A stretch of DNA of 64,000 nt from the NCBI GenBank assembly GCA_022072025.1, contig JAJVIP010000010.1:178050-242049 (forward strand), given 5' to 3'. The notes under the pieces are model-generated. The model was not told the origin of the DNA. It saw nothing but the letters and a program-made list of their open reading frames with translations, and ran no database searches. Source of the DNA: Elusimicrobiota bacterium (lineage in GTDB: Bacteria; Elusimicrobiota; Elusimicrobia; F11). Position 1 is the stretch's first letter; each line of letters opens with the position of its first letter. Made by a program: the position numbers and the translations under genes. This document shows positions 5,715 through 61,800 of the stretch, piece by piece.

Positions 5715-5738
5715 TACTTCGTACCTTCGCAGAGGAAT

Positions 5739-34519: not shown

Positions 34520-34535
34520 CCCCAGTGCTTGCCGG

Positions 34536-36110: not shown

Positions 36111-36122
36111 TAATATAGGTTA

Positions 36123-37886: not shown

Positions 37887-40800
37887 TCATTTGTGCGAGT
37901 CTATATATTTGTGACTAACAAGGTGTTTGGCCCGTTTGCGGTCCCACAGGGGGGTGCGGCAGCGGAGCAGGGCCCACAACGAGAAAGGGCCGGAGAGGGC
38001 GGATGCTTCCTCTGTTCCACCCAATAAGTGAAGTTCACCGGTGAATTGCGCCCATCGGAGGCGCTCCAAGGATACCTGGGCCAGGTGAACGCGCCCGTCA
38101 GCCCCCCGCACCTCGAGCCGAATGGCGTCTTGATCAGAAGCGCCCACCCAGAAGAGGGTCGTTTCACCGGTCGCGAAATAAATGACACTGGGCAAATTCA
38201 ACGAAGTGCCATGGCTCTGGGCAAACTTGGTCATGATTTTTCGATGGGCCCAAACGTCTTCGGGCGTGGGCGCGAACCGAGCCAAACCTCTAAACGATTG
38301 AGGCCAGCCCCCATGGGTGTGGAAGGGAACGAAGGGCCCGGTCAACTTTTCAAAGTCAGAATCATGAACCACGACGCTCGTGGGAGAATTGAAAACAGGC
38401 GAAAAGAACACAATGCCATCGTCATTCCCGCGAAGAAGAATCGCTCCGGCTCTTTCATGTTCAAAGAGAGTCGATTTCTTCAGGGAAGGAGCAAGTGCAT
38501 AAGATCTAAATTCCTCCATTTCTACGGCTGGCCGGATAGGGGCGGGAATGAGCCCCCCTGCCCCCGCTCCCTCCCTCACCGTGACATCAGCTTTGGGCAA
38601 GGGATTTAAGGGGAAAGTGGACGTACCGGTGAGAGAGACGGCCACCCCATATTCTTGGTCTCCTCTCTTTTGGACACTCAAAAGGACCGGTGAATACTGC
38701 CCCTTGTTGTCCTGTCGAAGGGCCAACTGCCATTGGTTGTCATCACGCGGAGAATTTTTAAGCAAGGTGGTGATTTGCTCCCACAGGTTCGATCCCGGAA
38801 CCAGCGAGTCAATCAATTTGCTCAAAGCCGCGATTTTTCCTTCAGGCAAGGTCAGGATGGCTTTAAGAACTTGAACATCTTCGAGGGGAACCACCTCGCT
38901 TAACGAAACGTCGGACCGCACATAGGCTTGCCCCAATTCCATGGGCACCTTGGAGGCCAGTGAATCCATTGTAAGCGAGACGGTCGTTTCTTTCGCTCCC
39001 AACAAAATCTCTGTAAATGCCATCACACCAGAAAGAATGGGATGGACAATGTCGTCTATAGCGAATTCTTCTCTGGGATCTACATCGAAAAGAGTTTTGA
39101 ATTCGGCGCCTACCGACAACAAGGGAGTCACAGCAGCCTCATCAGCTCCTTCAAGCGCTTTCGTCACAAACGGAGTGGCGATCTTCAAAGCAAAGTCGGA
39201 CAATCGGGCTGACAAAGAAACCCCTCCTTTGGGCAAAACGGCGGTTGCGGCCAGACCGTCCAAGCGGAGCAGGCTGCCCGTTTTGATGTCGCCTCTTGTC
39301 CCAATCAAGGTGGCTTTTCCGGCGCCTTGGGCCCGCAACATCCCCACCCCCAGAGGCGTGGCCATCAAGGCGGTCCCTCTGAACCGTTTCACCGCGTCTG
39401 GCAAGACCAGGGTCCCTTTGTCCCGGTCAAAAGAGGCGAAATACAAATTCCCTCTCGCGGTCATGATCAAAACCCGTGTTCCATTATCCGGGCCTGCCAC
39501 CAAACTGGAACCCGCGAGACTTTGAAGAATGCTCGCGATGGCAGGTCGCCCGCCGGACAAACGAAATACCGGGAAAGAACGCCCGCCAATCTTCACGCGA
39601 CTGTCAAAGGTGGCGTTTACAGGGCCTCCAGGCCCCAACAACACAAAACGGTTCATCTGAAGATCTCCGAGATCAACCGAAGAATTGGTTAAAACAAAAC
39701 CATTCGCGGCAACATTTATTTCCACCTTCTTCAAAAAGAAACCTTCTTCCGCATTACCCTGAAAAACTCCATAAAAGGTTGGTTGACCTGTGGGACTTTC
39801 CGGCAATTGCGCGCCCAAAGTCATTCCCAAAACCATGGCCAACTCTCGGTCCTTGACTTGAAGACCTTGAGAGGTAACCTGGGCCGGCACCAAACGTCCT
39901 CCCACACGGAATGACACTTCACTTCCAACCCGATACACTTGAACTCTGAATTCACCTGGACGAACAGTGGCCTGTTGGACCGTCACCGTGTTGTTTCTTT
40001 CATCCACCTCGACAGATACGGGTTTATTGGGAACAAAATCCGGGGATTCAATTTGTAACAGTCCCTTGATTCTTTGGAAGAGAGAAGGAGATTGAATCCA
40101 AACAGGGTTTCCTGTGACTCTCGGACCGGAGGGTTCTTTTGAACGCGCTTTTTCTTTGGATTCTTTGGAAGGTTCAAGCCGACTCGTTTTGAGCGTTGTA
40201 AGAGACGAGGGTTTGCTGGACGTAAACAAGGGCCTACTCATAAGAAATGAGGCCAAGCCACTGACAATGGACGGACGGTCGCTTCCAAACAGAGGAATGA
40301 GGAATGAATCCAGCCCTCCCAAGAGGGGAACCGTCTCTCCAACCCCTTTAGGACTTGCCGCCTCTTCCCTTGCTCCGGCTGAGGAGGCCTCATCTCCAAC
40401 AAGGGCCGGGAAGAACGCCATCCCAAAAGGAGATGAAAGGGCCGCGGCCAAGGCCCCTGGCAAAAGAGAGGCGGACTCCTCTTTCGGTTTCTCGGCCTCT
40501 ACAGGTTCAGGCGCTCCGTCTTTTTTGGCGATGGGCCCTTCGGTTTTTCCTTCGCCTGAGGGCCGGACGCTGGAATCTCGACGGCGAGGTGTTTCGGGCC
40601 GTTCTTGCCGTTGGGGCTGCCTCAGCGTTTGGATCTCCACCCCTTCCCGCGTTCTCACGGCGCCCACCCGCACTTTTTCACCGCCGACGGGTCTCAACAT
40701 TTTTTGTATGGCTCCCGCGAGAACAACCGCATTTTTCCTGACCAACAGAAGGCCGTCTTTCCCCACCACCGCCTCCATCGTTACTCTCCGAACCTTGAAC

Positions 40801-43800
40801 TCCAGAACGGTTCCTTCTTTCAGGAATCCCTTTGGACCTTTTAACTCCTTGTTATCAGTGACCAATCGCAAACGTCCATCGCCGAACCTTAACTGAGACG
40901 ATCCAAAACGCACCGGAATGGTTTCTTTCACGAGAGGTTTGGGTTTCTTGTCGGTCAACCGGGCGTCGGGATGAATTTTTTCCACGATAGCCTTGCCTTC
41001 AAGCACTGAATCCCCCTCTTTGGGAAGTGATGCGGCTTCGGCTTTTTTGTCTTCAATGGTTTTGACCAAGTCTTCCACGAGAAAATCCGGGACCAAAGGC
41101 CCCACAATATCCAGACCCCGCGAAATCCACGATTTGGCCATTTCAAATATTTTGGGAACGATTTTTTCTTCGGGACTGAATTCTTTTTCCAGGCTTGTCA
41201 TTTCGTCCGTCGACAACCCCAGATCGGTGGAGATTTCTTTGATCGAATCCTCATCGCCCCGGATGAGCGCTTGAGCCAACATTTCGATTTCAACCTTCAC
41301 ACTCTCCGGGAGCGGTTCTCGACGCGCCTTTTCAACCAAAGAACGAACCTGGGCAATTTCTCTGGCGGTGGGGGCTCGAGGTGACGAGGCCCTCTCTGTT
41401 TTGGGCCCCGGCGCTTCTACGGATCCCGGAGCGGCCTCGGCCCCTTTTTCCTCGGGCTCAGGATCTTTAAAGAAACCAGTGATGTCGTCAATTAAGTCAC
41501 CAATCCAGTCCTTCAAGAGACGAGTCATCCTTCGAGCGGGACTGTTGGTCCATATAGGATTCCAAATCCCGCTCTGGAAAAGGCGGCCGCCCTCCGGTAA
41601 GCCCCAGGCAGCAATCGCGGGCAGATAATAATAGGGATCATGTGCGAAATCTTCGGGGTCCCGCGTTATATCTGGTGGCCTCCGTTCAATGCGTCCCCCT
41701 CCGTTGTTCACTGGGGTGTGATAACGGGAGATCATTTCGATATCCTGGTGTTCAACATTTTCCCCACCGCCAGCGCCCACCTGCCGATTCAAAATGGGAT
41801 TATAAAACCCAATGGGGGCCCCCAAGAACAACGATCCCACTCCCGAAGGACCGTAATACAGATCCGACAAACTCGCGCCGGGTAAATTTCCCTCATAGCG
41901 CCGGCGGCTCACATGTTTTACATAGGGAGTCATGACACCTGCCTGCGTGAGATTTGCTCGATAGTCCAGGGTGAGCGAGGCTCGATATTTTACAATGGCC
42001 TCATACAGCTGTTCCGTCATGGGAGTTGCCCCTCGCCTGTCGTCACCATTGATATCGGGGTCCTCATCTCCTTGGAGAGTGGGGTTCAGCGGATCGCCAA
42101 AGGGATCAAACAGGCGGCGGCTAAATACGGTTTCATGGGTGTAAACATAATAATCAGCCTCTTGGTTAAACCAATGGGCGAAGAGAGGAAAACCCCCGAT
42201 AGGATCGACGAGATTGGGATTTCCCGAAAGTTGATTGAGTGAGAAATGAACCACTTTTTGTCGTTGATCAATTTGTTTGAGAACGTCTCCGTCATATTTT
42301 CGGTCTTCCACTTTGAAGAGCTTAAAGTAATCTCCATAGAACCGAAATCCATTGCCCAAATTGATTTCCTGCCAGCCAATAAACTCCATGTGGTTTACTT
42401 TTTGGGTGAGGATCGGATCTCGGTTCGACGTGAGTTCCCATTTTTCCGTGTAATGATTGAGGATGGTTCCATCCCGATCGGCATTGCCCAGGGTGCCATA
42501 ATAGGGGGCGTTACCACCGGCCAAATCTCCACCAACGGAACGGACCAACTGAGACACCGATTGGAACGAACCCGGAGCGAACCCAAACCAAACCGAGGAC
42601 TGGAGCACCTTGACGTCAATACTGGCGGACCCGTCCATTCGGGTGAACAGAAGTCCTTGCGCGTCATATTCATATTTTCGGTCCACAACAGTGTAGACCG
42701 GCACCACATTGGCTCCGGGCCCCGCCACCCCAAAAAAGCCCACGCCTTCATATTTTTGTTCCCGCACATTTTCCATGCGGTAATGCTCGCCAAAATCCCG
42801 CACCATGGAGGTTTCGGTTTGGTTCCACCAATTGTTCTGTGAAAACAATTGGCCTGTGCGGCTCACACTAAAAGCAAAATCCCCTTGGCCGTTCGCGTTT
42901 CGGACATAGGTTGTTTCGGTCTCGCTGACAAGTCCATTCGAATTACTTTCACTGAACGCCTTCAACACCTGTTCGCCCACCCAACGGTAAATGCCGTACT
43001 GGTTGTAGCCTTTGGCGGTGGAAAAGTTACGGACATTGGGAAGCGTGACCGCCACGCCACCGCCGTCCGTTCCCGTTTCGTTGAGATACCAGGCGTTCCA
43101 GGTTCGACTTGTCCACCCGTCTGTGGCTCCGGTTTGACCGAACAAGTTGAAGGTGCGGTTTATGAAACTCACCGTCTCCGTATAGGAGGATTGATAATTG
43201 TTGAGGGACGCGCTGATGGTGTCGGTGCGAACGGCATCCATAAACCCAAACAAGCTGCGGTGATAGGTTTGGGACAACGACCGCGTCCAAGCGCCTTGGC
43301 TCGGGAACGCATCCCCGGCTGCGGCTCCGCCGGCGTTCACGGGAGGATTAAAAGTGTCTCGAATGGAGTTGGTAATTTTGTCGATGGAGTTCCCCACCGC
43401 GTTGTAACGGTACGCCGATACGCTTGAGCCGGTGGTGATCGACTCCACGCGCCCGGCCACCGTCATGATTTCGTTCGAGGTGCTGCTGTCCATATCCACC
43501 ACGCGTTTGCCCGCAATGTTAATGAAGGTCACAAAAGATCGTGAATTGCCCGTGTGGGAAACGGGCAGGCCCACCGGGCTGATTTCCTGTTTATCAAACA
43601 CCACATTGCTTTCTGTAAACCCATTGATGAACTCGGCGTTCCACGGGTTGTAAAAAAACCGCGACACACGGGTGGCCCGGGTTTGATCAATGGGATACCA
43701 ACCGGTCAAGTTCACGCTCGTGCTGTCGTTCACTTCTTCAAACACGTCGCGCATCAAATTCGTGTTGCCGATCACGCGACTCACGCGAAGCCCGTTGTTT

Positions 43801-46800
43801 TCGGTCGTGAGAACGCCATTTGAAAAACTGCGATCGTTGAATTCCGTGCGGTTCTCAAAATTCACATTAATGGGGAAATAGAGCCCCCGATCATTAAAGA
43901 CATCGTCAACCAGGGCCCCCATAAACCAGAGGCTGATCTCAGGCCCCCGCGGCAAGGAGGGATAGAGCCAAAGGGCGCTGGTCGCCGGTCCATCCCCCCA
44001 AACGACATAATCGGCCATATCCCATCCGACTGGAATTTGATCGGTGGTGTCATATTCATAGTCGACCCAGTCCGGCATATAGGTATGGTAATGACGCGTC
44101 ACCGCCCGGGACTGATTCCAATCTCCTCGAATGTTGGACCCGCTGGATTCAATAAGTGATTCATAAGGAACCGGGGCCCCAAAGGCAATAATGTATTGGG
44201 TAAGAACGGAATAGGCATTTGAGTACACCAGGCCGTCACCGCCGAACCCCGATGACGCCCCAAGCGACCCCGTGATACGTCCGCCCGAATCCCAGCTTTG
44301 CCACAGCGTGTCGAAATTGATGCTCCAGGAACCATCCACGCGCCGGCTTTCTGAACGGGTGGACGTCCCGATGGGACGGGCCTGTCCCGCATAAATACCG
44401 TAAGAAACAGTCGAAAAACTGGAATAGGTATTGCCCCAAAAATCGGTTCCAAACGAATTTCGATTTCCCCACACTTCCGCTAATTGGTCCCGCTCATCAT
44501 AAAAATAGCTGGTCAAACTGTAATTGCTCCCGTAATTGTTGTCCCGCCGCATAAAACCGCCTTGGCTGAGCACCGATATCACCTTGAACCTTCCATGCAG
44601 CAGGACATAACTGGTCCGTGAAAGCGCCTCCCACGATTGGTTCCCAGAACCGTCATTGGTGGCGCTGGTTCCATAGGCCACCTGATCCAAGAGACGCCCA
44701 TTCGTTTCGTAATCGGTATAGGTCAAGTTGGTGGAGGCGGTGATGGACCCGCTCATCGACCTGGACTCTGAATCCACACGGGTCTCAATCGACCTAGCCT
44801 GGCCGGCGATAATCCCAAACAAAGTGTGGGTCACGGCGCGCGAAATATTTCCCCATCCATCATTGGTTTTGCTGCTTCCCAACGAAAAAGCGAAATCCAA
44901 TAAATAATAAGCGCCCACTTTTTTATATCCATAGTGCATCGCGCTTTCCGACCAAGAGAGCGATTGATCCATCGCCGCGTGTAAATTGTTGCTCAACGAC
45001 AACGAAATCTTGAGCAATCCTCCCACCGCAATATAGGTGTCTTCTCCGATGCCACGATCGATGTTCCCATACCCGTCGTCGGATCTCGATTCACGGGTGC
45101 CCTTGCCCCCCTCAAGCACGCCGTCATCAGAATAGAGGGTTCGCGAAATATTCTTGGAGAGTTGTGAGGACCCGTCGAAAAAATTCCCTAAGGATAATGT
45201 GCCGCTGACCGTCTGCTTGGAGTTCCCAGCGATGTTCTCCGATTGGGACAGGGTCCAGGCCGTGCTTACGTTCTCATATCCGTCGTCAGAGGTGGAGGTG
45301 TTGCGGCTGCTGGAAGTGATGCGGCGGGGCAAAGCGCCTGAGGACATGAACCAATTTAAATTGACGCTGTCGGAAATGCTGGACGATCCATCGGTATTAA
45401 AGGATTCAACATGGGACTGGCTTAAAAATGTTTTGATGGATCCCGCCATCAATCGCAAGTCCACCGTCACCCTCCGGTCTTGCGTGTTGCCAAAGAGGTC
45501 AGTCGTGATCGAATCCCCTCCGGTTTGAACCGCTCCGGTCATATTGCCTTCCTCATCATAGTGATATTGGGTGCGCGCCCGATTTTTGGAAACCGTGCGG
45601 GTTCCGTCCGTGCTTTCACCCAGAGTCTCACTCAGTGAATAGTCCAACTTGACCAGCGTTTTGATCACCCGGTAAAAAGATTCGGTGTTGGTGTCACTCG
45701 TATTTCCGAAACCGTCATCGTTGCGAAGTCGGCTCCAACTGTGTTGGTCTTTTAAACGGCCCACCGCGTCATATTGATATTCGGTGAAATTTTCTCCGTT
45801 GAGTAACGTGAACGAACCATCGTTGTTGTCCGACTCGATGCCTGTGACCAACTGCTCGGTGAGCCGCGCTTCTTTTAAAACGATCTCAAAGTTTTGAATG
45901 AAAGATTGTTTCTGTTTGTTGCCATGGGCGTCTTCGGTGAGAGACCAGCCGGAACCCGTGGTGCTGAGCGCCGGGGCCACGGAAGGGTCAAACACACTGA
46001 TCACCTCCACCTCGCTTTCCTGGCGGTTTCCGTCAATCAATTGGGTTTTTGAGGAGGTCTTTCGAATTTCGGCTCTTTGTTGGCCGATGGTTTGCCACAC
46101 CACAGCCGAAAGCTGTTGCTCCACTTTGCTTTCACTCAAACTCCGCCAAGCGAAAGAATTTTGGGTCGATGTTTTATCGGTGAAGTTGTAGAGGAGCTGG
46201 CTTAAATCGTCGATTACGCGTTTATTTTTGGTTTGGCCCATCAAGGAGGTGATTTTCCCCGCCACCTCCACAAACGTTCCGCCCGCGTTGAGGATGGCGG
46301 TCACCGCGGGATCCAATTCAGGATCTCCGAGCAACCGGTCCTCGATAACTTTCAAGAACGCCCGGTTCGGTCCCGATTCTTGTTCGCGGAACAAGGCTTC
46401 CACCACTTGACCTTCGAAATCAAAGTTGAGAGTGTTCTTCCATTCGTCCAGGTCCGGCATGGCTTCGATGCGCTGGATCACAAAATCATAAAAATCGTCA
46501 TAGCTGGTGTTGTCCGCGTTGTGGGTGTCCAGCCAATCCTCCAGCGAGGTTTGAAAGTCGTTTCGGACTTTCAACACTTCCGAGAAATCCGGATTCCAAA
46601 GGGGTTGGGACAAATCATTTCTCAAGATGCCGCCCAATCTTTGTTCGGCCGGACTCAAGGGGTCCAAATCCGTGAATCGATCAAACACATCGATGACCGA
46701 CTGAACGGCCTGATCCATGTCGGCTTGATTGATGAATTCCCTTTTTTTGTACATCTCTCCGCTCTCCGATTCGCCGGTCGAAAGCGGGGCTTTTTCGGTC

Positions 46801-49800
46801 GGCCGACCCAACAGGTCGAAGGCTCCCTGCCCCAACACCGTGTTCACGGAACGATTGAAGGTATGGTCCGCTTGGAACACCGGAGTTTCATAGCGCCCTC
46901 CGCCCCAATCCGGGTTTTTGAGATCATTGTTGATGAGCGTGTTATCGGAACTGAAGGACCGCGTGATCACCTTGTCAAAAGCCATTTTTCCGGAGAAGCC
47001 CCAAATATCGCCTTGATGCGTGGTTTGACTGATGGACTTTTGGAACCGCGCTCCGTCAAAATTGAGATACCAGGAATCGATCACCGGCGCGTGAGCCGCA
47101 TGAGGTTGACCACTGGTCTCCTTCCAACTGTTTTCATAGGTGGTTCGACTGAAACCCCGGAACCAGGTGTCATTTTCTTGCACAAACGGAATTTCAAAGG
47201 AGCCCTCACCCCATTCACTGTCAATTCCAAGGGTTCCCGATTTCTTTTTATCGTTGCTCGAGAAAATCAGGGATCGGCTTTCCTTGAGCCGAACGATTCC
47301 CAACGAACGCCACAGGTCATCGCGGTTGTCTTGCTCCAATATCACTTTATTGAACCCTACGTTATGTCCTTCCCCAATGCCGCTGTCGCTCCAACTCCAT
47401 CCAGTGGAGCGTGGCGCCAATTCGGTGGGTCGGCCCATCACGCCGAATTCTTTGTGAGTGGAACCCACGTAATCGGTTTTGATCGAGGTTCGGGAACGGC
47501 TGTCATCAAAAGAACGAACCGGATCATCAAACGTGCCGCCGCCGAAAATAATCGTGGCGCCACGTTCGCCAAAAAGGGCGGCGTCAGCTTCAGTTCCCTG
47601 CTCCGTCCAATCGGAGCTGTAGGACCTTGATTCCGTGGATTCCAAAACCAAGCGGCCCAACGTGTTCCAGAAGAAAGGATCATTTTTTTGGGTGGACCGC
47701 GCCGCGGTGTAGGAAGTCAGTCCATCAAAACTCCAGTTCCAAGAAGACACCGTGGGCAACGCGTCGGCCACCAATTTTCCGGTGGCGGCGTCAAAGGAAC
47801 CCGCGTAGGTGGTGCGCGCATAACTGCGCGAAAGAGACCGATCGTCCTGCGCCGCGGGGTTCCCAAAGGTGCCGTTTCCTTGACGATCGCTCGACCAAGA
47901 CCGAACGGCGCTCTCCACCAATCGCGTGAGGCCGGTGTTTTTCCAAATGACATCGTCATTTTTCTGCGCGATCTCTGAAGCCGTGAACCCCGTGTGTCCG
48001 GTTTCACGGCCCGCGGGAATTCCATCAAATGACAGGGACTTTCCAAAGGCCGTGGGCGCCTTATCCGTCAAGCGCCCGGTCACGGGATTGTAGCTGTCCT
48101 TAAAGGAGGTGGTGAATTCCGACGTGCTCCAAGAATCCGTCACGTGCGCGACCGGATTCTCCAGCGTGCCCTCGCCATATCGTTTGGTTTTCCAGGCGTC
48201 CTCAAAGGTCCCCCCTTCTTTTCCATTCGAGGAGAAGGAGCGGGACGTGCTCTCCAACACAAGCGCCCGGCCCAAGTGGTATTGAACGGACCCGTTGTAT
48301 TTTTCAATTGAAATGGATTTGGTGAAGGTGTTGAAACCATCGAAACTTAAATTCTCGGATTCCAAGAGTCGCGGAGCGTAAGTTTGATCTTCGATATCGC
48401 CGCTTCCGCGCTCCACGCCGCCGAATTCATTCCAACGGGGCCGGTTGTCTTGCGCCCGATAACTGCGGGCATAACTGCCATCGGCATTCAATTTAAATGG
48501 ATCATCGTAACTGCCCTCACCTAAATCGTTCGATGAGAAACTTCGCGTGATGGACAAACCGTCCCGCTCCACGCCTTGGTTTTTCCAAATGTCTTTTGCC
48601 GACTCCACGCGAAATTCGGATTTGTTGTATCCAAGTGTATTGTTCGGCAAATATCCGTCATAGGAGAGACTGGTTCCCACCGTGACCGGAGCTTTATCGG
48701 TTGGACGTGAAGATTCCAGGTCATAAGCCCCCTCATACAGCCGTTTGCTTTCGCTCTTGTTCCAGCCTCCCGTCATTTGGACCGCGGGCCTGTCATAACT
48801 GCCCCCGCCATAAACCAACAGGCTGCTGTAATCGATCACATCTCCATGAGAATCCTTCACAAGAATGGGTTTTTCAAACAATGCTTGCGCCTCCCAAGTC
48901 GACGCGGCGTTATCCGAGGTCCAATTGTGCGAGGTGACTTCCAAGGCCAACGCTTTTCCAAAGCGGTTCCACAAAACAGAATTAAATTTCGTGCTGGATT
49001 CGGACCGCGAATAATTGGCCACCCCGTCAAAACTCCAACTGCCGCTGTGGTTCACAGGAACACCGTCGGCCTTTCGATTGATGGCGCCGATGACCGTTCG
49101 ATCCCCGTCGGAAATCACCTGATCCCCATCCACATAACTGTTGGAATAGTCGGTGACGGACCAGAACCGCGTCGACTCGCCCGTCTCCATTTCCACCGGC
49201 GATTCAAAACGGCCGCGCCCTTCTTTGTCGGAGCTATAGCCGATTGACACTTCTATGGTTGAACGCAAAAGCCCCGTGAGTTCCCAAATTTTTTGGTTGT
49301 GGGCTCTGTATATCTCACTTTTGGAATAACCCACATTGATGCCAGGAAGAGCCAAGCCATCAAAACTCAAACTCCATCCTTCTGTCCATGGCGTGTTGGT
49401 CCCGATGGCCTTGGAGGTCGTGAGGTCATAACTGTTGGTGTAATGGGTCACCAAATGGTTTTTGCTCCAACTGCCGTCTTTTTGCGGCGTGGGATTGGAA
49501 AAATTCCCCAAACCAAAAGCGGGCACCCGGTTCATGTCCACGAACCCTCCGACGGCGTCTCGAACGACCAAGGTTCGACCCAAGGCTTGATCCGCCTCCC
49601 ACGGAGCCGCAGAATCATCGCTCGAATAACTGTCCACCACGCTTTCCGAAAGCAATGTTTTGCCAAACCGGTTCCAGATGTCCACGTTAAATTTCTGGGT
49701 AATGTCGGTTCGTGTGTATTGATGGAAACCGTCAAAACTCCAACTGCCGCCTTTGACCACCGGCACGCCCTGGGCGGACCGGTTAATGGCGCCCAGATTT

Positions 49801-52800
49801 TTTCGCCATTGGGAAGGCGCCACTTGAACCCCATCAATATAACTCGAGCTGTAGTCGGTGACCGTCCACGATCTGAATTGACTGCCGTCGGCGGAAGAGA
49901 GGGAGTTCAAATCATGGTAATCGCCCTCTCCCGCGGCATTGGAGTTGAAGCTCAAAGACACCGACGAATCCAACCGCAAAAGACCGGCCGCGTCCCACAG
50001 ATGAGAGTTGTAGGTTTGATATATGAGACTCTTGGAATATCCCAATCCCAAATGGAGAAGAGCGGTTCCGTCAAAACTCAAACTGAACCCTTCCGCCCAG
50101 GGTGTTGAAAGTCCCGTCGGAAGAGTCGTGAGCGGATCATAGCTGTCTTGATAATGGGTGATCATTTCGCTTTTGGTCCAGCTCTCATCGCCCTGTTGGA
50201 GCGGCGACTCAAAGGATCCGCCACCGATCACCGCGATGTTGTTGTAATCAATTAAACGTCCTTGCGAATCCCGCCCCAATAGAGGCACGCCGAACTCACG
50301 ACCCGCCTGCCAGGTGTGCGCCTGATCATCAGAGGAGAAACTTCGAACCACCGAACGCGCGAGCAATGTTTTTCCGAATGTGATCCAGAAGGTCGGATCA
50401 AAAATTTGTTCGTTTTCAGACACGGTGAAATGTCCTTGGCCGTCATCGCTCCAGCCGCCCCCTTTGACCACCGGAACCGCGGCCGCCGTTCGGTTGACCG
50501 CGCCCGCTTTGGGGCCTGACTTGATCCACGCATTTTCATAACTCGTCACATTCCAGGAACGAGACCGGGTGTCATCGATGCCCCGATGCGGCTCCATCAG
50601 CGAACCCGCCTGACCCTCATCGGAGCTGTGGCTAAAATTAAAAGAGGCCTTGAGCCTCATTTGACCGGTGAGTTCCCAAATATCGTCATGGAACACTTGG
50701 TTGATGTCGGTTCGCGTATATCCAAGCCCGAGTCCCGGCAAAGAGAGCCCGTCAAAACTCAAGGACCATCCTGTTGAATGGGGCGCCACCGCGGTGGGCC
50801 GCGCGCTGTTTAAATCGTAACTGTCGTGGTAGCGGGTCGTGATTTCGCTTTTGTTCCAACTCAAATCGCTTTGAGAAAGCGGCGCGTCAAAGGTCCCTTT
50901 TCCAAACACGATGGTGGAACTCAAATCCAAAGACTGCCCAAAGGCGTCTCGAACCAAAACCGGCGATCCCGACAAGGAGGCCACATCCCAGAGACTCGGC
51001 AATTCATCACTGGAATAACTTCGGGAAACGGTCTCCAACATCAAGGTCTTGCCATGATTGATCCAGAATCTGGGATCGAATGTTTGCGCGGTATCGGTTC
51101 GGGTGAAACGCCCAAAACCGTCGTCACTCCAAGAGCCGCTCGACCCCACAGGCGTTCCCGCTTCAGTTCGGTTCACCGCGCCCGCCTTGGGCCCTCCAGT
51201 CACCCACGCATTGTCGTAAAGCAGAACGCTCCAAGAGCGGGATTGTTGACGGTCAATCCAAGGAACGGGTTGTTCAAAGTTGCCGGCTCCAAATTCATTG
51301 GAGGTCCAATTAAAATTCGCGTTCGCCTGAGTGCGCAACAAGCCCGTGGACGCCCAAAGCGCGCTGTTGTAGGTGGTATAACTCACTCCATGCGTGTGAC
51401 CGGTTCCCGGCATGAGACTGAGGCCGTCGAAGGAATGGGTTTCTCCTTCGCTCCACGGCGTGTGTTCAAAGGCGCCATCAGAAAAGGGTTTTGAGGTGGT
51501 TTCATCATAGGCGGTTTCGTAATGGGTGGTGATGCGGCTGCCATTCCAACTGTCATCGCCTTGAGCCACCGCTCCAAACAAGTTCGCGGGATTCACCTGG
51601 CCGCGGACCTCCATTTCCGTTTCAATTTTGATCTCTCCCGCGGCATCGCGGAACCGGATGACCCTCTCAGGGCTAAATTCCGCGCCCGCCCGCCAGAGAA
51701 CTTTTTTATCTTCGGTGGTTCCCGATGTTGTTTCAGTGAGGAACGCCACCGTCTTCCCAAAATTTTTCCATACGGCCTTATTGAAATCGGTTCGGGTCAA
51801 ACTTCGCGTGAACGTTTTAAACCCATCGAATGAAAACCCCCAGGACCAACTTTGCGGAACCCCCGAATCGGTTCGATTGACGGCGCCCATTTCTCGTCCG
51901 GAAGTTACCCAGGCATTGGCATAACTGGTGATGTTCCACGCCGCGTTGTAACTGTTGTCCGCGGCGCGAACGGGATTCTCAAGACTCCCATCTCCGGCCG
52001 CGTTCGACGTCCACGTTTTGCTGATGGATTGTTCGGTGCGCAGCAGGCCCCCCAAGGCCCAAAGCAGGGAATTGTACGTAGTATAGATGAGGCCATGGGT
52101 GTGGCCTTGGCCCGGCGCGAAACTGAGCCCGTCAAAATTGTGGGTTTCACCCTCTGACCAAGGGGTGTGTTCAAAGGAACCATCCTCATAGGGACGGCTG
52201 GTCGCTTCATCATAGGCCGTTTCATAATGCGTGGTCACGCGGCTGCCATTCCAACTCTCATCGGTCCCCGCCGCCGCGCCAAACAAATGGTCATTATCGA
52301 CGGGACCGCGAACCGTCATTTCGGTTTCGTTTTTGATTTGGCCATCGGCCTCCCGAATGAGCACTTGAAGCCCGGGATCAAACGCGGCTCCGACCCGCCA
52401 CGTATAAGGAGCCACCACGCCGTTCTCTCCCCGCGTGGAGGCTGAGATCGACACGCTTTGAGCCGCCACGGTTTTCCCAAATTGGGCCCATATATTTTTA
52501 TTAAAGGTTGTTTCAGTGAATGTTCGACTGTAGGAGCGGATCCCGTCAAACAAAGCGCTCCACGACACACTGGTGGGGGTGCCCAGCGCGCTGCGGTTGA
52601 CGGCGCCCAATTGGGATCCTTCGGTGATCCAGGCTTCGCTGAAATTGGTGACGCTCCAATTCATATTGCTGCTCCCGTCCAATTGAAAGACAGGATTGTC
52701 GATGGATCCCTCCCCCACCGCGTTGGACGACCAAGATTTATTGACGGACGTGAACGTTCGAAGCAGTCCCGCCCCTTTCCAAATGTCGTTGTTGTAGGTG

Positions 52801-55800
52801 GTATAGAGCACACCGTGCGTATGGCCTTGACCGGGGATGGGGCTCAAGCCGTCAAAATTGTGGCTCTCCCCTTCGCTCCAAGGGGTTCGTTCAAAGGACC
52901 CCTCTTTCCATGGTTGAGAGGTGCTTTCATCATAGGCCGTTTCGTAATGGGTCACCACGCGGCTGCCATTCCAACTGCCGTCGCTCTGCGGAAGTGCCTG
53001 GAATAAATTCGGATTGGCGCTCTCATCGATGGGCCCGCGGACCCGCATGCGAGACTCGTCATAGATATCGCCAACCGCGTCGCGGAGACGAACCCGAATA
53101 TCCGGATCAAATTGAGCCCCGACATTCCATTCATAGGGGTCTGCGATTCCATTGTCTCCGGCGGTGGTTCCGCTGACGGTTTCACTTCTCAATAAAACCG
53201 TTTTTCCAAACTGACTCCAGATGTTGTCGTTGAAAAGGCTGGTGGTGAGGCTGCGCGTATAGGTACGCAGACCGTCATAGGACACGCTCCATGAAAATCC
53301 CTTCGGGGTTCCCTGGCCGCTGCGGTTGACCGCTCCCACGTTATCGCCTTGCGTCACCCACGCGTCTTTGTAATTCGTCACACTCCAGGAAAGCGTGGTG
53401 GTGTTGTCCGTTTGGAAAATGGGCTCATTGATATTTCCCTCGCCCGCCGCATTGGACGACCAGGTTTTGCTCACATTGGAATCGGTGCGCAGCGTCGCGG
53501 CCCACTTCCATATTTCCGTGTTGTAAGTTGTGTAGATGAGACCATGGGTGTGGCCTTGACCTGGAACAAGAGAAAGACCATCGAAGTTATGACTCTCTCC
53601 TTCCGACCAAGGCGTTTGATCGAAACGGCCCTCTTGATAATGCCGGCTGGTGGCCTCATCATAGGCCGTTTCGTAATGAGTCACCACACGACTGCCGTTC
53701 CAACTGCCGTCTCCTTGCGGCAAGGCCTGATACAGATGGGGGGTCGCGCTGGTATCAATGGGGCCTTTAACACGGAGCAGGGTTTCATCGGTGAGGTTGC
53801 CTCGCGAGTCACGGGTTTTGAGGGTGAGGCCCTCTCCCAAACTCTGGGCCACATTCCACTGCCAATCGTTGATACGGCCTTGGTTGCCCTGCGTGGAACT
53901 TGACGTGCTTTCGGTTTGGCGAATCACCGTTTTTCCAAACCGGCTCCAAATGTTGTCGTTGAAATAACTGTGGGTGAGGGTGCGTGTGTAAGACCGCAAG
54001 CCGTCATAAGAAGCGCTCCACGTCGCGCCGGTGGGAGTTCCGCTCCCAGACCGGTTCACCGCGCCAGCGGCATCGCCAGAGGTGATCCAGGCATCTTTGA
54101 AATTCGTCACACTCCAAGCCACAGAGGTGCTGTTATCTTTCTGGGCGAGGGGATACTCAATATCGCCATGCCCCGCCGCGTTGGACGACCAGGTTTTGCT
54201 CAATGAGACATAGGTTCTCAGCACGGCCGCAAGCGCCCAGATCTCCGAATTATAGGAGGAGTGGGTGGTTCCATGCGTGTGGCCTTGTCCGGGAATGGAA
54301 CTGAGCCCATCAAAAGAATGGGTTTCGCCTTCGCTCCAAGGGGTGTGGAAATCCGCATTTTGGTAGCCGGCATCTCCTTCCTTCCACGGCCGCGAGGTGG
54401 CGGGGTTATAGGCCGTTTCATAATGCGTCACCACCCGGCTGCCGTTCCAACTGCCATCTCCTTGGGCCACCGCGTCAAACAAATTCCGGGAATCCACCGC
54501 CCCACGAACCGTCATCACCGTTTCATCGATCACGTTCCCATCGGCGTCTCGCGTTTTAATGAATACGCCGGGAGAAAACTTCCCGCCGACCGCCCAGGAA
54601 CTCGCCTCATCCCGGCTGCTGGAAGAAACAGATTCAGACGTTCGCGCCACAGTTTTTCCAAACTTTTTCCAAATCTCGGAATTAAATTTCGTTTCGGATT
54701 CACCTCGCGTGAATGTTTTAAACCCATCGTAATTAAAACTCCACGCCCAGCTTTGGGGAGTGGCCTCATCCGACCGATTGACGGCCCCGGCTTTGGCACC
54801 CGAGGTGATCCACGCGTTTCCATAATTGGTCACACTCCAGCTCAAATTCATGCTGTTGTCCTCTTGATAAATGGGGCGCTCCAGGCTTCCCGTCGATCCG
54901 TCCGCATGAGTATTCGTGGCATTCGAACTCCAACTCTTCGATACCGAATTGTCCGTTCGTAAAATCCCCGCCAACCGCCAAACCTCTTGGTTGTAGGTGG
55001 TCGATACAACCCCGTGGGTATGGCCCTGTCCTTCCAGCAGGGAAAGACCATCATAACTGTGCGTTTCTCCCACGCTCCACGGGGTATGATATTCAGCGCT
55101 TTCATACCCCACGTCGCCTCTCTGCCAAGGACGGGACGTCTCTTCGTTATAAGCGGTTTGGTAATAGGTGGTCACGCGGCTTCCATTCCAACTCTCATCG
55201 CCCTGGGCCACCGCCCCGTACATATTGTTTTCGTTCACCGTGCCGCGCACTTCCATAACGGTTTCATTGATGATTCTTCCATTGGCATCGCGCGTATAAA
55301 TGGACACATCCGGATCAAACTGACGCCCCGCGTTCCAATCATGGGTTTTGTTTTCGCTGGTGGCCGAGGTGGTTTCGGTTTTCAACAAAACGGTTTTTCC
55401 AAACTTCTTCCAGAGGTTGTTGTTGAATTCGGTTTTGGATTCGCTGCGCGTAAAGGTTCTAAAACCGTCGTAGGAAAAGCCCCACGACCAACCTTGGGGT
55501 GTGGCATTGTCTTCTCTGTTGACCGCGCCTGCCTTGTCACCGCTCGTCACCCAAGCGTTTTTGTAATTGGTGACGCTCCAGCTCAGGTTCGTGCTGTTGT
55601 CTATTTGCGCGAGCGGGTTCGTGATGCTCCCCGAGGTCCCGTCAGAAAGTGTGTTGGTGGCGTTCGAACTCCAACTTTTGCTCACAGAATTTTCTGTCCG
55701 CAACAGGCCCGCCCACCGCCAAACGTCTTGATTATACGTGGTGAAGATCATGCCATGGGTGTGGCCTTGACCCTCTTTGAGCAAGGGGGAGGTGTCGATG

Positions 55801-58800
55801 GCGCCAAGACCATCATAGCTGTGGGTTTCCCCTTCGCTCCAAGGTGTGCTCTCAGGAGAACCGTCTTGATGCGGGCGACTGGTTTCTTCATCATAAGCGG
55901 TTTCGTAATGCGTGACGATGCGGCTTCCGTTCCAGCTTTCATCGCCCTGAGCCACCGCATTAAATAGATTTCGCGAATCCAAGGCGCCCCGAACCTGCAT
56001 CCATGTTTCATCCCGAATAACACCATTCGCGTCTCTTGTCTTAATCGTGACATCGGGGTTGGACAATTCGCCCACTTTCCATTGGTGTGCCTCATCCCGG
56101 CTTGTGCCCGATTCGGTTTCGGTTCTGAACACCACCGTTTTTCCAAAACGCTTCCAGAGGGCGCGGTTGAATTCACTGGTTGATTGACTTCGCGTGTAAG
56201 TCTTAAAACCGTCGAAGGAGAACCCCCACGACCAACTGGTGGGAACCGCGTCATCGGTTCGGTTCACCGCGCCCGCTTTGGCTCCGCTCAATATCCAGGC
56301 GTTTCGATAATGGGTGACGCTCCAACTTAAGTTTGTGCTGTTGTCAGATTGATGAAGCGGGTTCGTGATGCTGCCGATGCCGTCCAACGGATGGCTGTTA
56401 TTGGCGGTGGAACTCCAACTCTTGCTTACGGAATGGTCGGTTCTTAGCAATCCCGCGTTTTTCCAAATTTCTTGATTGAAACTCGTAAAGACCACCCCAT
56501 GGCTATGCCCTTGTCCCTCCACCACCGAGAGTCCATCGTAGCTGTGGGTTTCGCCTTCGCTCCACGGCGTGTGGTGTTCCAAACCTTGGAAACCAAGGTC
56601 GCTCTCCTGCCAGGGGCGGGACGTCTCCACGTTATAAGCGGTTCGGTAGTGAGTGGTCACCCGGCTCCCATTCCAACTGCCATCGCCCTGAGAAACCGCG
56701 CCATACAAATTGTTTTCATCGCGGTCGGAATCCAACCAACCTCTCACTTGCATCAGGGTTTCATCTCGAATCACACCGTCTTGATCGCGTGTGCGAATGG
56801 AAAGGGGAAGACCAGCCGCCTGCGCCACGTTCCAGGTTCTTTCTTCATTCGCGCTTGTGCCCGAGGTCGTTTCAGTCTGGTAAATAACCGTTTTTCCAAA
56901 TCTCTTCCATATCTCTTTGTTGAAATCCGTTTTGGATTCGCTGCGCGTAAAGGTTCTAAACCCATCAAAGGAGAAACCCCACGACCAGCTTTGGGGCGTC
57001 GCGTCGTCCAATCGGCTCACGGCGCCGGCCTTGTCACCGCTTGTCACCCAAGCCTTGCCGTAATGGGTCACACTCCAACTTAAAGAAGTGCTGTTGTCCG
57101 ATTGATGGAGCGGATTGGTGATGCTGCCGATGCCGTCCAACGGATGGCTGTTGTCGGCGGTGGAGCTCCAACTCTTGCTCACGGAATTGTCGGTTCTTAG
57201 CAGCCCAGCGTTCTTCCAGATCTCTCGGTTGAATGTGGTGAAGGTAACCCCATGGCTATGGCCTTGGCCTTCCACCACCGAGAGTCCATCATAACTGTGG
57301 GTTTCCCCTTCACTCCACGGCGTGTGTTCAAAGGAACCGTCTTGGTGCGGGCGGCTCGTTTCAAGGTCGTAAGCGGTTTCGTAATGCGTGACGATGCGGC
57401 TTCCGTTCCAACTCTCGTCGCCTTGGGAAACCGCGCGGAACTTGTTGTTTTCGCTCACGTCACGGTCCAACAACCCGCGAACCCGCAGGCGCGTCTCATC
57501 TCGTATCACGCCTTCGTGGTCACGCGTGCGAACCGTCACGCCGGAACCGAACAATTCTCCGGTATCCCAATCTCTTTCTTCATCCCGGCTGGTGCCCGAT
57601 TCGGTTTCGGTTCTGAACACCACCGTTTTTCCAAATTTTTTCCAAATCTCCTGGTTGAATTCTGTTTTGGTTTCGCTGCGGGTGGTGGTTTTGAAACCAT
57701 CAAAGGAGAATCCCCACGACCAGCTTTGGGGCGTCGCCTCGTCCAGTCGATTCACCGCGCCAGCCTTGTCACCGCTTGTCACCCAGGCATTTCTGTAATT
57801 GGTCACACTCCAATTTAAATTGGTGCTGTTATCGGATTGGTGAAGCGGGTTTGTGATGCTGCCCACCCCATCCACAGAATGAATATTTGTCGCGGTGGAA
57901 CTCCAGCTTTTGCTCACAGAATTGTCGGTTCGCAGCAGGCCCGCGTTTTTCCAGACCTCCTGATTGTAAGTGGTGAAAACAACGCCATGGGTATGACCTT
58001 GGCCTTCCACCACCGAGAGTCCATCATAGCTGTGGGTTTCCCCTTCGCTCCACGGCGTGTGTTCGAAGGAACCGTCTTGGTGGGGGCGGCTCGTTTCCAA
58101 GTCGTAAGCGGTTTCGTAATGCGTGACGACGCGGCTGCCGTTCCAACTGCCATCGCCTTGTGAAACCGCGTCATATAAATTGTTTTCGTTTCGGTCCTCA
58201 TCGAGAAGTCCCTGGACCCGCATCGTGGTTTCGTCGATAAGCCGACCGTCTTTGTCACGCACCCGAATGATCACATCGGGATCAAAAGCGCGACCCACGT
58301 CCCAATTGCGTTCTCCTGGCAAACTGGTGCCGGAGGTGGTTTCCGTTTTGAGCACCACCGTTTTTCCAAATTTCTTCCAAATCTCCGAGTTGAATTCTGT
58401 TTTGGATTCGCTGCGCGTATAGGATTTGAAACCGTCAAAGGAGAAACCCCAGGACAAACTGACAGGCGTGGCGTCATCCGCGCGGTTGACAGCGCCCGCT
58501 TTGTCGCCGCTCGTGACCCAGGCATTTCGGTAATTCGTCACGCTCCAATTTAAAGAAGTGCTGTTGTCGAGTTGGTGGAGCGGATTGCCAATGCCGCCTT
58601 GGGTTCCGTCTGGAAGCGTGTTGGTGGCATTCGAACTCCAACTCTTGCTCACGGAATTGTCGGTTCGCAGAAGTCCCGACAAACGCCACACCTCTTGATT
58701 GTAAGAGGTAAAGGTGACCCCATGCGTGTGACCTTGGGCTTCTTTGAGTTGCGGTGAGGTCTCAATGGCTCCCAGGCCGTCAAAGCTGTGAGTTTCGCCC

Positions 58801-61800
58801 TCACTCCAGGGCGTGTGATATTCGCTGTCCACAAATCCCCGTTCACCACTCTGCCAGGGCCGGGACGTCTCGCTGTTGTACGCCCGCTCGTAGTGGGTGG
58901 TGACGCGGCTTCCATTCCAACTATCGTCCCCTTGAGAGACCGCGTCGAACATATGATCTTCACCCACGTCTTCGTCGATGAGCCCTCGAACAAGCATTTG
59001 GGTCTCGTCCATAATGTTTCCATTGTTATCTCGAATTTTAATGTTCACGCCCGGGTCCAACGCGTCCCCAACATTCCATTGTCTCTGCGCGTCGCGGCTG
59101 GTGGCCGACGTGCTTTCAGAACGCGACAACACGGTCTTCCCAAATCTTTTCCAAATCTCTTGGTTGAATTCGCTTTTGGAGGTGCTTCGCGTGTAGGTTT
59201 TAAATCCATCAAAAGAGAAACCCCAAGACAGGCTCACCGGCGTCGCGTCATCCGACCGGTTGACGGCGCCGGCCTTGTTGCCGCTCGTGACCCAGGCGTT
59301 TCGGTAATTCGTCACGCTCCAGTTCAAGTTCGTGCTGTTATCGGATTGGTGAAGCGGGTTCGTGATGCTGCCGAGGCCATCCTCCGAATGAATATTTGTG
59401 GCGGTGGAACTCCAACTCTTGCTCACGGAGTTTTCGGTTCGAAGCAACGCCGCTTGTTTCCATATCTCTTGGTTGTAGGTGGTGAACACCACGCCATGCG
59501 TGTGGCCTTGACCTTGAAGCGCGCTTAGCCCGTCAAAGTTGTGGGTTTCGCCTTCACTCCACGGCGTGTGATTTTCCTGAGACACAAAACCCGCCTCGGT
59601 CTCGCGCCACAAATGGGAAGTGGTTTCATTGTAAGCCGTCTCATAATGAGTGGTCACACGGCTGCCGTTCCAGCTATCGTCTCCTTGAGCCACCGCCCCA
59701 AACATGTTGTTGGGATCGATGGCGCCTCGCACGCGCATCACCGTTTCATCCCGTATCACGCCTTCTTTGTCGCGCGTTCTAATTGTGACGTCCGGAGTGG
59801 CCTTTGACCCCACCGACCATTCGGCCTCTTGATTGGCGCTGCTTCCCGATGTGCTGGTGGTTTGTCGAAGCACGGTTTTTCCAAATTTCTTCCAAATTTC
59901 ATTGTTGAATTGGGTGGTGGACTCGCTTCGCGTATACGTTTTGATCCCGTCAAAGGAAAAACCCCATGACCAACCTTGAGGGGTGGCATCGTCTGTGCGG
60001 TTCACCGCGCCCGCTTTGTCGCCACTGGTGATCCACGCCTTCTGATAGTTCGTCACACTCCAACTCAAATTCGTGCTGTTGTCGGACTGAGCGATGGGGT
60101 TCTCCAGGCTGCCCGCTGTTCCATTCGCGAGCGTGTTCGCGGCATTCGAACTCCAACTCTTGTTCACAGAATTTTCAGTTCGAAGGAGCCCCGCCAACCG
60201 CCACACGTCTTGGTTGTATGTGGTGAAAATGACGCCATGCGTGTGGCCTTGACCCTCCACCACGGAGAGCCCATCATAACTGTGCGTTTCACCTTCGCTC
60301 CATGGCGTGTGTTCAAAGGTTCCGTCTTGATAGGGCTTGGCGGTAGCCGGGTCATAGGCATATTCATAATGGGTCACCACACGGCTGCGGTTCCAACTCT
60401 CATCGCCTTGCGCCAAAGCCCCATATTTATTGGAGGGATTGCGCCGGCCATACACCAAGGCCACGCTGAAATCAACCGTGTCGCCGCTTTCATTTCGGAC
60501 CGCCAGCCGTCGTCCAAACTCGTCGGAAAGAACCCAAGCCGTTTCTTGGTCGTCGGTGGTGGCGCTTGTGACGGTGGTTTTCAACACCACGGTTCGTCCA
60601 AACCGATTCCAAATTTCCTTGTTGTATTCGGTGTCGGTGGAGGAGCGGGTCATGGTTCTAAATCCATCAAAGGACCAGGCGAGACTTTTGGTTTTGGGCA
60701 GGCCCGCTTCAGTGCGAATGATGGACCCGATACCCTCTCCGGCCGGCGGCATAAACCGAACCCCGTCGTAATAACTCTTCGAATAGTCGGTGACCGAAAG
60801 ACTGCGTTGTTGGCTGCCGTCCAAGGCCGCCACCGGCGCCTCATAACTTCCCTCGCCATTGGCATTGGAGCTAAAACCCTGGTTGATCACGGTCTCGAGT
60901 TTCAGGCCTCCCGTCTTCTGCCAAATGTTCGCGTTGAAAGTTTGGAATATCGTGCTCTTGGAATAGCCCAACTCAAGACCTGGAAGGCTCAAGCCGTCAA
61001 AATTCAGCGACCATCCCGTTGCCCACGGCGCGACTGAAGTGGGCCTCGTGGTCTCTTCGTCATAACTGTCTTTGTAGTGGGTGATCAGTTCAGACTTGTT
61101 CCAACTCTCATCTCCTTGAACAAAAGGCGAATCAAACGATCCCCGCCCATAAACCCTCAAGGAACTGAGATCAAACGTACTCCCGTTCTCCCGTCGAACG
61201 CTGAGGGCGCGACCAAACCCTTGGACGGCATCGGTCGTATCCCAAAGGGCGGGATCATTGGAACTGGAATAACTGCGCGAGATGCTTTTCTCCAAAGACG
61301 TTCGTCCAAATTTATTCCAAATGGCTTGATTGAACTCTTGGGTGGTATCGCTGCGGGTATAGGAACGGAAACCATCGAAAGACAAACTGCCACCCAAGGT
61401 TTTGGGAAGTCCTTGTTGGGACCTGACCAACGCGCCGATCCCTTCGCCCGCCGGCGGCACGGTGTTCACACCATCATAATAGGAGGAAGTGTAATCGCTC
61501 ACCGACCACGACCGTGTGGTGCTGCCGTCAGAAGCCGGCTCAGGCGCATCAAAAGTTCCCAGCGTCCCGGTTGAATCGGTGCTCCAAGAAAAATTGGCGG
61601 AGGTGGCCAATTTGGTTTGGCCCGTGGCCGCCCAGATGTGTTGGTTAAAGGATTGGTAAAACGAACTGGCCGTGGTGCCTTGGTTGAGGCCGGGCACCGC
61701 GGTTCCGTCGAAAGACAATGAACGCCCTGTCATAAACGGAGCGAAACTTAATATTGGCGCGCCGTTTTGGGTGTTGTAAGAACGTGAAAAATCGGTGGTC

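Follow-up and report, generated by a model that had tools for sequence, protein, structure and literature searches.

Results

A giant open reading frame with a tandem repeat array

The stretch of DNA analysed here (64,000 nucleotides (nt) from an Elusimicrobiota bacterium, hereafter the window) carries on its minus strand a single open reading frame (ORF) at 37887-63959, whose frame stays open to base 64000 and thus encodes a protein of at least 8,703 amino acids (aa). The frame is uninterrupted over 26 kb, and residue i begins at base 64001-3i. Judging from sequence, the window protein is probably far larger than 8,703 aa, because in an orthologue described below ~9,770 aa precede the stretch corresponding to aa 1 of the window. 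The region under study, 46780-50850, corresponds to aa ~4384-5740 of the giant ORF. An initial annotation had described it as a decay series, in which full 245-aa units become shorter and more divergent towards a downstream rearrangement hotspot (RHS) shell. The region lies within a long tandem array, the parts of which are as follows.

37887..64000, minus strand: giant ORF of at least 8,703 aa, containing all other parts (ORF list and translation; orthologues in other Elusimicrobiota metagenome-assembled genomes (MAGs))
46761..62321, minus strand: tandem array of 44 units, that is 22 alpha/beta doublets, aa 560-5746 (segmentation anchored on the FDG motif; hidden Markov model (HMM) scans for A, B and I; hhalign comparison of alpha and beta, E 4.6e-18)
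60282..62321, minus strand: N-terminal flank, units 0-5, aa 560-1239, divergent, with units 0-3 as reciprocal positional orthologues (phmmer, unit identities)
51129..60281, minus strand: homogenised centre, units 6-30, aa 1240-4290, doublet period 241-258 aa, beta units with full segment I (alignment of 13 doublets, identities, DNA repeats)
48666..51128, minus strand: intermediate units of the C-terminal flank, units 31-37, aa 4291-5111, beta units of 123-124 aa with shortened segment I (HMM scans, lengths, identities, DNA families D13-D19)
46761..48665, minus strand: six distal short units, units 38-43, aa 5112-5746, 100-113 aa each, segment I reduced to a stub (positional orthology, metagenome fragments, AlphaFold model)
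47889..48092, minus strand: the example given in the initial annotation, SYNPVTGRLTDKAP...SLSFDG...IWKNTG...SWSS, aa 5303-5370 (translation)

The repeat is a doublet

When one central 245-aa unit (aa 2196-2440) was used as the query, phmmer found 23 consecutive copies at aa 487-5685 and, well beyond chance, every unit of the studied region. The sequence blocks that had been pointed out in 46780-50850 are thus real, and 12 consecutive repeat units within this interval carry them. Alignment of 13 central copies divided the 245-aa module into three parts, namely half A (~97 aa; SWNGSR..THYETAYD..TPWSEGETHSYDG..YNQEIW..SKSWSS), half B (80 aa; STNLSW..SWGFSFDGF..FNxEIWKKFGKT..TSGTS) and segment I (~54 aa; W.VG..I.TRD..G.I.DET.M.VRG). 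The profiles of the two halves are homologous, with an hhalign E of 8e-6 for the central copies only and a probability of 99% (E 4.6e-18, 91 columns) for all units. The module consequently consists of two homologous units of ~100 aa (A or alpha, B or beta) and an extra segment I of ~50 aa in every second unit. Together with the HMM matches, this bears out the earlier proposal that short and long units form one family.

With separate HMMs for A, B and I, we could follow the A/B alternation through the studied region to aa ~5688. The A units start there at aa 4380, 4606, 4843, 5079, 5289 and 5496, and the B units at aa 4478, 4708, 4944, 5214, 5411 and 5617. The score of segment I fades across the same region, from 30 to 11, ~0 and 8 bits, after which the segment is undetectable. 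Unit lengths, measured between FDG anchors, changed in one type alone: alpha-type units measure 100-115 aa throughout the array, while beta-type units step down from 133-143 aa in the centre to 123-124 aa (aa 4292-4990) and 100-113 aa (aa 5219-5647). On the N-terminal flank, the beta-type lengths are 103, 126 and 131 aa. The doublet period runs from 241-258 aa through 226-237 aa to 205-223 aa, and a DNA repeat search gave a spacing of 720-774 nt in the centre and of 678-711 nt within 48946-50893, with nothing detectable at the DNA level below ~48900. Tandem Repeats Finder, whose longest period of 500 nt falls short of the array period of ~735 nt, returned no result.

The supposed degradation of 245-aa units to ~110 aa is a mis-parse, since the doublet is retained and the shrinkage is confined to the extra segment of every second unit. 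What holds of the decay series is that the C-terminal copies diverge progressively.

Divergence increases towards both ends of the array

The phmmer scores obtained with the central unit were 300-540 bits in the centre of the array and fell on the C-terminal side to 187, 90, 98, 94, 40, 42 and 9 bits. An equal fall-off was seen on the N-terminal side (126, 71, 8.6 and 1.1 bits). The divergence gradient is symmetrical and is not aimed at the C-terminal region, which speaks against a gradient towards an RHS shell.

The intermediate units 31-37 resemble the N-flank units 2-5 at both the protein and the DNA level, and the two groups are mutual closest relatives, with units 3-4 of the N-terminal flank nearest to units 31-37. 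The DNA families D13-D19, which have the 678-711 nt spacing, show cross-matches to 60751-61138. Individual segments of the intermediate C-terminal flank are 73-77% identical in DNA to segments of the N-terminal flank ~10 kb away, namely 50136-50215 and 50814-50893 to 61059-61138, and 49114-49160 and 49819-49865 to 60751-60797. The likeness between the two flanks is consistent with an older repeat layer that the expanding centre pushed apart.

Old edges and a homogenised centre

A word-indexed search of 5.8 billion proteins returned only two fragments, P0001 and P0002. They adjoin on the nanopore metagenome contig ERZ26871208 contig_60284, with a 13,046-aa gene on one side and a 1,460-aa gene on the other. 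In two of the three word-indexed homologue searches, a further protein, P0003, was the sole match. The called genes of 13,046, 1,445, 1,151 and 1,460 aa are one giant orthologue gene that is split by an in-frame TGA and frameshifts. The breaks lie at 9818-9820 and about 14110-14173 of locus L002 and in locus L001, and the TGA may be an error of sequencing or else a genuine stop or recoding site.

The orthologue array (merged loci L001 and L002) was segmented with the alpha and beta HMMs of the window and also comprises 44 alternating alpha/beta units. Identities of the distal units 38-43 to the orthologue units of the same index were 46, 54, 45, 55, 42 and 46%, and these pairs are reciprocal best matches. 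In each case, the same-index identity exceeded that to the best paralogue (34-43%) and that to all other orthologue units of the same type, except for unit 40, where another unit ties at 45%. At the opposite end of the array, units 0-3 reached 50, 55, 40 and 47% with their same-index counterparts, again reciprocally, and the same-index identity was above that to the best paralogue for units 0 and 1 as well as for units 38-43. Central units 6-29, by contrast, are 58-86% identical to their paralogues and only 32-41% identical to any orthologue unit, with no positional correspondence; within the genome the means are 65% (alpha-alpha) and 58% (beta-beta), compared with a same-index orthologue mean of 32%.

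A third lineage shows the same layout. Protein P0004 (5,671 aa) has a strict central period of 227 aa, after which come the six short units and then counterparts of the insert and compact units found downstream of the array in the window (see below). Alternation of alpha and beta units throughout the array is common to the three lineages. The distal units also recur in P0007 and in many metagenome fragments, which match specific distal positions at 40-59% identity.

As edge units match the same position across genomes and central units match within the genome, the edges are old and conserved and the centre is homogenised. The short units, being conserved positional orthologues between lineages, are old and stable end units, neither decaying copies nor a frozen series of origin.

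Both arrays have exactly 44 units between orthologous ends (46761-62321 in the window, L001/L002 in the orthologue), with interiors at ~32% identity. The equal unit count hints at selection on array length.

Predicted structure of the repeat unit

We modelled two distal doublets (aa 5079-5495) with AlphaFold2, using an input alignment of 13 rows of non-overlapping doublet pairs together with P0001 and P0002. The model had a mean predicted local distance difference test (pLDDT) score of 85.5 and a predicted template modelling (pTM) score of 0.80. According to DSSP, a short helix at FN..IW..G follows the first three strands of each modelled unit and precedes the fourth; the strands are 9-11 residues long, and this pattern was seen four times. 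The basic unit of ~100 aa is thus predicted to consist of four antiparallel strands and one short helix. A Foldseek search of the model against the PDB gave no match below E 0.08, and neither phmmer nor profile searches of PDB sequences gave any match.

How the array may have evolved

The apparent decay in 46780-50850 is the ordinary signature of tandem-array evolution, in which interior doublets are kept alike within each genome and outer units persist as positional orthologues. The interior is closer to its paralogues, the edges are divergent yet positionally orthologous, and the duplicated block is larger than one basic unit. Together, these observations make it quite probable that the region forms the C-terminal edge of a tandem array of 44 units whose middle is homogenised, within a giant beta-rich structural protein of an Elusimicrobiota bacterium. 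The interior would have been homogenised as blocks of several units underwent unequal recombination or gene conversion. The gradation in length of the extra segment recurs in three lineages and could represent a conserved structural taper of the sheet towards the array ends; the segment itself may be a beta-hairpin. In such a protein, the array might serve as a long spacer, fibre or tubule, and the 44 units found in both countable lineages suggest a constraint on its length.

Several points weigh against this reading. An equal count of 44 is surprising under unequal crossing-over, and the count depends on our own segmentation and on a nanopore orthologue with one in-frame TGA and frameshifts. 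The structural model spans 417 aa of the array, and the full central form of the extra segment lies outside the modelled part. The N-terminus of the giant ORF, together with any signal peptide, lies beyond the edge of the window. Finally, we infer both the mechanism of homogenisation (gene conversion as opposed to repeated expansion and contraction) and, as no more than that, the function as fibre or tubule.

The layout of the centre would also be compatible with a history without homogenisation, in which the centre arose in each lineage by a recent, independent amplification burst on top of a short, ancient array consisting of today's edge units. Central periods are indeed lineage-specific (245 aa here, ~241 aa in the orthologue and 227 aa in P0004), central identity is high within and low between genomes, and the layered likeness of the N- and C-terminal flanks fits an insertion in the middle of the array. 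Nevertheless, we regard such bursts as unlikely, given that independent events would hardly yield an equal total of 44 units in two lineages and that the central units are 44-86% identical and hence not recent. This alternative departs from the homogenised array in mechanism alone, and the reading of the region would remain unchanged.

Flanking compact units and their relation to RHS repeats

The sequences on either side of the array bear on the proposed link with RHS proteins and their YD repeats. The following features were distinguished.

46149..46760, minus strand: insert, aa 5747-5950 (~200 aa), in the last unit at the site of the FDG turn, putatively alpha-helical (sequence, P0001 alignment)
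45933..46148, minus strand: bridging unit, aa 5951-6022, with the 72-aa length of the compact type and the VW..IGQQ motif of the array type (four-lineage alignment)
44232..45932, minus strand: eight compact units of 69-72 aa, aa 6023-6589, each with a D.[FYW]GN turn and one YD-like motif (anchor spacing, conservation)
42099..44231, minus strand: conserved non-periodic region, aa 6590-7300, the remainder of the supposed "RHS shell" (four-lineage alignment; no Pfam or NCBIfam match)
62388..63782, minus strand: compact-type units N-terminal of the array, aa 73-537 (compact-unit HMM)

The insert of ~200 aa is conserved in P0001, and in four lineages the repeat resumes straight after it. The anchors of the compact units are spaced at 72, 72, 72, 69, 72, 69 and 70 aa, and the motifs follow the order D.[FYW]GN, Y..I.GQAK, S.S, DGS and t.Y.YD..G.L. 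These units are kept position for position in four lineages and are members of one family with the 81-86-aa units that make up P0003. P0003 itself, a partial protein of 1,511 aa from an Elusimicrobiota MAG, is made up nearly entirely of such tandem units (DAFGNVT..Q.F.IIAGQAKVK..S.T.SVDGSVTVT.PYTMTY.Y) and has no Pfam annotation. A structural model of aa 5945-6640 was all-beta and showed four strands in each unit, 13-15 residues long, at low confidence (pLDDT 51.6 overall and 60-85 for aa ~6075-6415). Because the compact-unit HMM also matches within aa 73-537 (28.2 bits at aa 73-130, 15.4 at 332-373, 17.9 at 389-462 and 16.3 at 465-537), compact units flank the array on both sides. The array is thus set within a longer run of compact units, which probably extends upstream past the edge of the window.

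Searches for RHS domains gave little. A Pfam and NCBIfam scan of the whole giant protein yielded essentially no matches, the sole relevant lines being RHS_repeat (PF05593) at 19.5 bits (cut-off 22) and YD_repeat_2x (TIGR01643) at 11.3 bits (cut-off 15.8). Neither model thus exceeded its curated cut-off, and both hits fall on one site, aa ~6140, outside the studied region. The Rhs core model TIGR03696 had no match in the giant protein, and a crude HMM built from 12 RhsA YD repeats had one, at 8.2 bits. Likewise, none of the five long homologues scanned (P0007, P0032, P0060, P0062 and P0064) contained an above-threshold RHS domain. A profile of four orthologues over aa 5945-7450 matched no PDB sequence, solved RHS proteins included. 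The RHS-core-like string LFDPFGDPLNPT of the window is not conserved in three orthologues, and there is no conserved DPxGL cleavage motif. Rather than a YD motif every 20-22 residues, we found a period of 100-143 aa in the array and of 69-72 aa in the compact units. The downstream RHS shell was therefore not confirmed.

Profile comparisons revealed a more indirect connection. The compact-unit profile from four lineages aligned with 12 YD repeats of Escherichia coli RhsA at a probability of 80.7% (E 1.3e-5) over just 17 columns, which correspond to t.Y.YD..G.L; the score was 22.2, compared with 5.5 ± 1.6 for column-permuted controls. Against all 44 array units, the same profile gave a probability of 51.9% (E 1.5e-4) over 60 colinear columns, with a score of 25.2 compared with 7.3 ± 1.3 for permuted columns (maximum 9.9, n=40) and 10.5 for the reversed alignment. 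This second comparison is significant only with four lineages (E 0.01-0.1 with fewer), and it places compact and array units in one distant family. Direct comparison of the array units (alpha, beta, distal or all) with the RhsA YD profile gave E 0.02-0.36, near the permuted controls. The profile-profile alignment that had been proposed as a check thus gave no significant match between short units and canonical RHS repeats. From these sequence profiles, a distant and transitive relationship of the array to YD-type hairpins is plausible.

In the initial annotation, the short units were intermediates beside an RHS shell, part of a continuum that began with YD/RHS repeats, passed through ~110-aa units and ended in the 245-aa module, and hence a snapshot of how the giant repeat arose. 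Of this continuum, the weak transitive link through the compact units stands: the 72-aa units next to the array have a YD-like motif in common with RhsA repeats and are colinear with the array units (permutation z ~14), the bridging unit at aa 5951 combines features of compact and array units, and YD..G.L-like strings occur in some distal units. The series itself does not follow from this. Array units have no significant match to YD repeats, and their scores with the compact-unit HMM show no increase in the C-terminal direction (0.1-1.9 bits for units 40-43). Compact units are also present on the N-terminal side, the divergence gradient is symmetrical, and the distal units are conserved between lineages as reciprocal positional orthologues. 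In addition, RHS models stay below threshold, the Rhs core is absent from the scan, and the profile of aa 5945-7450 finds no solved RHS protein. As a directional series this view is largely refuted, and we consider it improbable overall; the claim of a frozen RHS-to-giant-repeat series does not hold and should not be carried forward in that form.

It is even harder to believe that the outer units are dispensable copies decaying towards loss under relaxed selection: HMM scores do drop and the extra segment does shrink at the array ends, but the frame is intact over 26 kb, the distal units are 42-55% identical between lineages compared with a mean of 32% for same-index central units, and they recur in P0004, P0007 and many metagenome fragments.

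Distribution of the family and surroundings of the gene

The family is a rare one: an exhaustive HMMER search of 1.84 billion representatives with a two-doublet profile found only 63 proteins at E <= 1e-3, mostly short fragments. Among ten matches that were looked up, three carried an organism name, and all three were Elusimicrobiota MAGs. Consistent with this, a scan of 185,579 species genomes returned 13 loci, all from Elusimicrobia or Elusimicrobiota; the closest reached 46, 43 and 40% identity.

The last ~1,250 aa of the giant protein (37890-41651, aa 7450-8703) hold low-complexity linkers rich in Pro, Glu and Lys and have no Pfam match. Over its final ~150 aa, the protein shares 37% identity with the end of a 648-aa gene that lies separately at the orthologue locus; the segment directly ahead of these residues holds an HTHGGW...PTPED string.

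Neighbouring genes encode two AAA_14/DUF4143 ATPases, a two-component system, a PilB-like secretion ATPase, a GAF/HD-domain protein and argG, and give no direct clue to the function of the giant protein. Directly downstream of the giant gene, at 33197-37379, the two ATPase genes, which are paralogous and lie on the plus strand, are located on either side of a minus-strand ORF of 524 aa without Pfam match. The secretion ATPase is of the PilB/T2SSE type with an MshEN domain and lies beside the GAF/HD-domain protein at 27769-30580, ~7 kb from the 3' end of the giant gene. Type II secretion-like loci have been reported near giant genes of Omnitrophota (West-Roberts et al., 10.1101/2023.11.21.568195).

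Discussion

The array described here is a clean and quantifiable case of array evolution, with a homogenised interior, positionally orthologous ends and an equal unit count in two lineages that have only ~32% identity in common. It belongs to a protein family without annotation, all named representatives of which are Elusimicrobiota. A further-reaching reading, which we put forward only as a possibility and with more doubt than confidence, would be an undescribed Elusimicrobiota family of giant single-chain beta-sheet proteins. In such a family, the four-strand unit would be distantly related to YD hairpins and the 44-unit array would act as a length-defined ruler or fibre, with unit number and position-specific ends held by selection and the interior continually homogenised.

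Nebulin super-repeats and the central repeats of ice-nucleation proteins expand several units at once in the middle of the array. The same was found for domain repeats in general, which mostly expand several domains at once and in the middle (Björklund, Ekman and Elofsson 2006, PMC1553488). Like those tandem arrays, the present one has a duplicated block of several units (here the doublet), a most uniform interior and divergent, old terminal units. It differs in that the edge units are demonstrably positional orthologues, in that 44 units are counted in two lineages despite lineage-specific interiors, and in that the units belong to no described domain family.

With RHS/YD proteins (PF05593, TIGR01643, TIGR03696; TcB/TcC, bacterial Rhs proteins and teneurins), the giant protein would share antiparallel beta-hairpin repeats, as well as the single t.Y.YD..G.L motif of each compact unit. 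RHS proteins carry one motif per ~21 aa, whereas here there is one per 72-aa compact unit and none detectable per 100-140-aa array unit; moreover, no RHS model reaches its threshold and neither an Rhs core nor a conserved DPxGL is present.

For the compact units, predicted at a pLDDT of 51.6 to be long, polar two-strand hairpins within one meander sheet, OspA, the CPAP G-box/TCP domain and MORN repeats offer a structural comparison. Those proteins have no sequence similarity to the compact units, and the giant protein would comprise hundreds of strands.

The nearest described analogue is found among giant proteins of Omnitrophota, for which hollow antiparallel beta-helix tubules of ~1,500 aa with regularly interspaced exterior helices have been predicted and loosely compared with RHS by the authors (West-Roberts et al. 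2023, bioRxiv 10.1101/2023.11.21.568195, section 10). Both are giant proteins of the PVC supergroup (Planctomycetota-Verrucomicrobiota-Chlamydiota and relatives) without Pfam annotation, in which a single chain is predicted to form a long antiparallel sheet. A continuous antiparallel sheet with regular short helices is also what our model of aa 5079-5495 predicts (pLDDT 85.5). The phylum is different, however, and the likeness drawn here is one of description and predicted fold. The Elusimicrobiota protein adds another phylum to the PVC-group bacteria for which huge single-chain beta-sheet assemblies have been described, and it comes with a confident model of the repeat unit.

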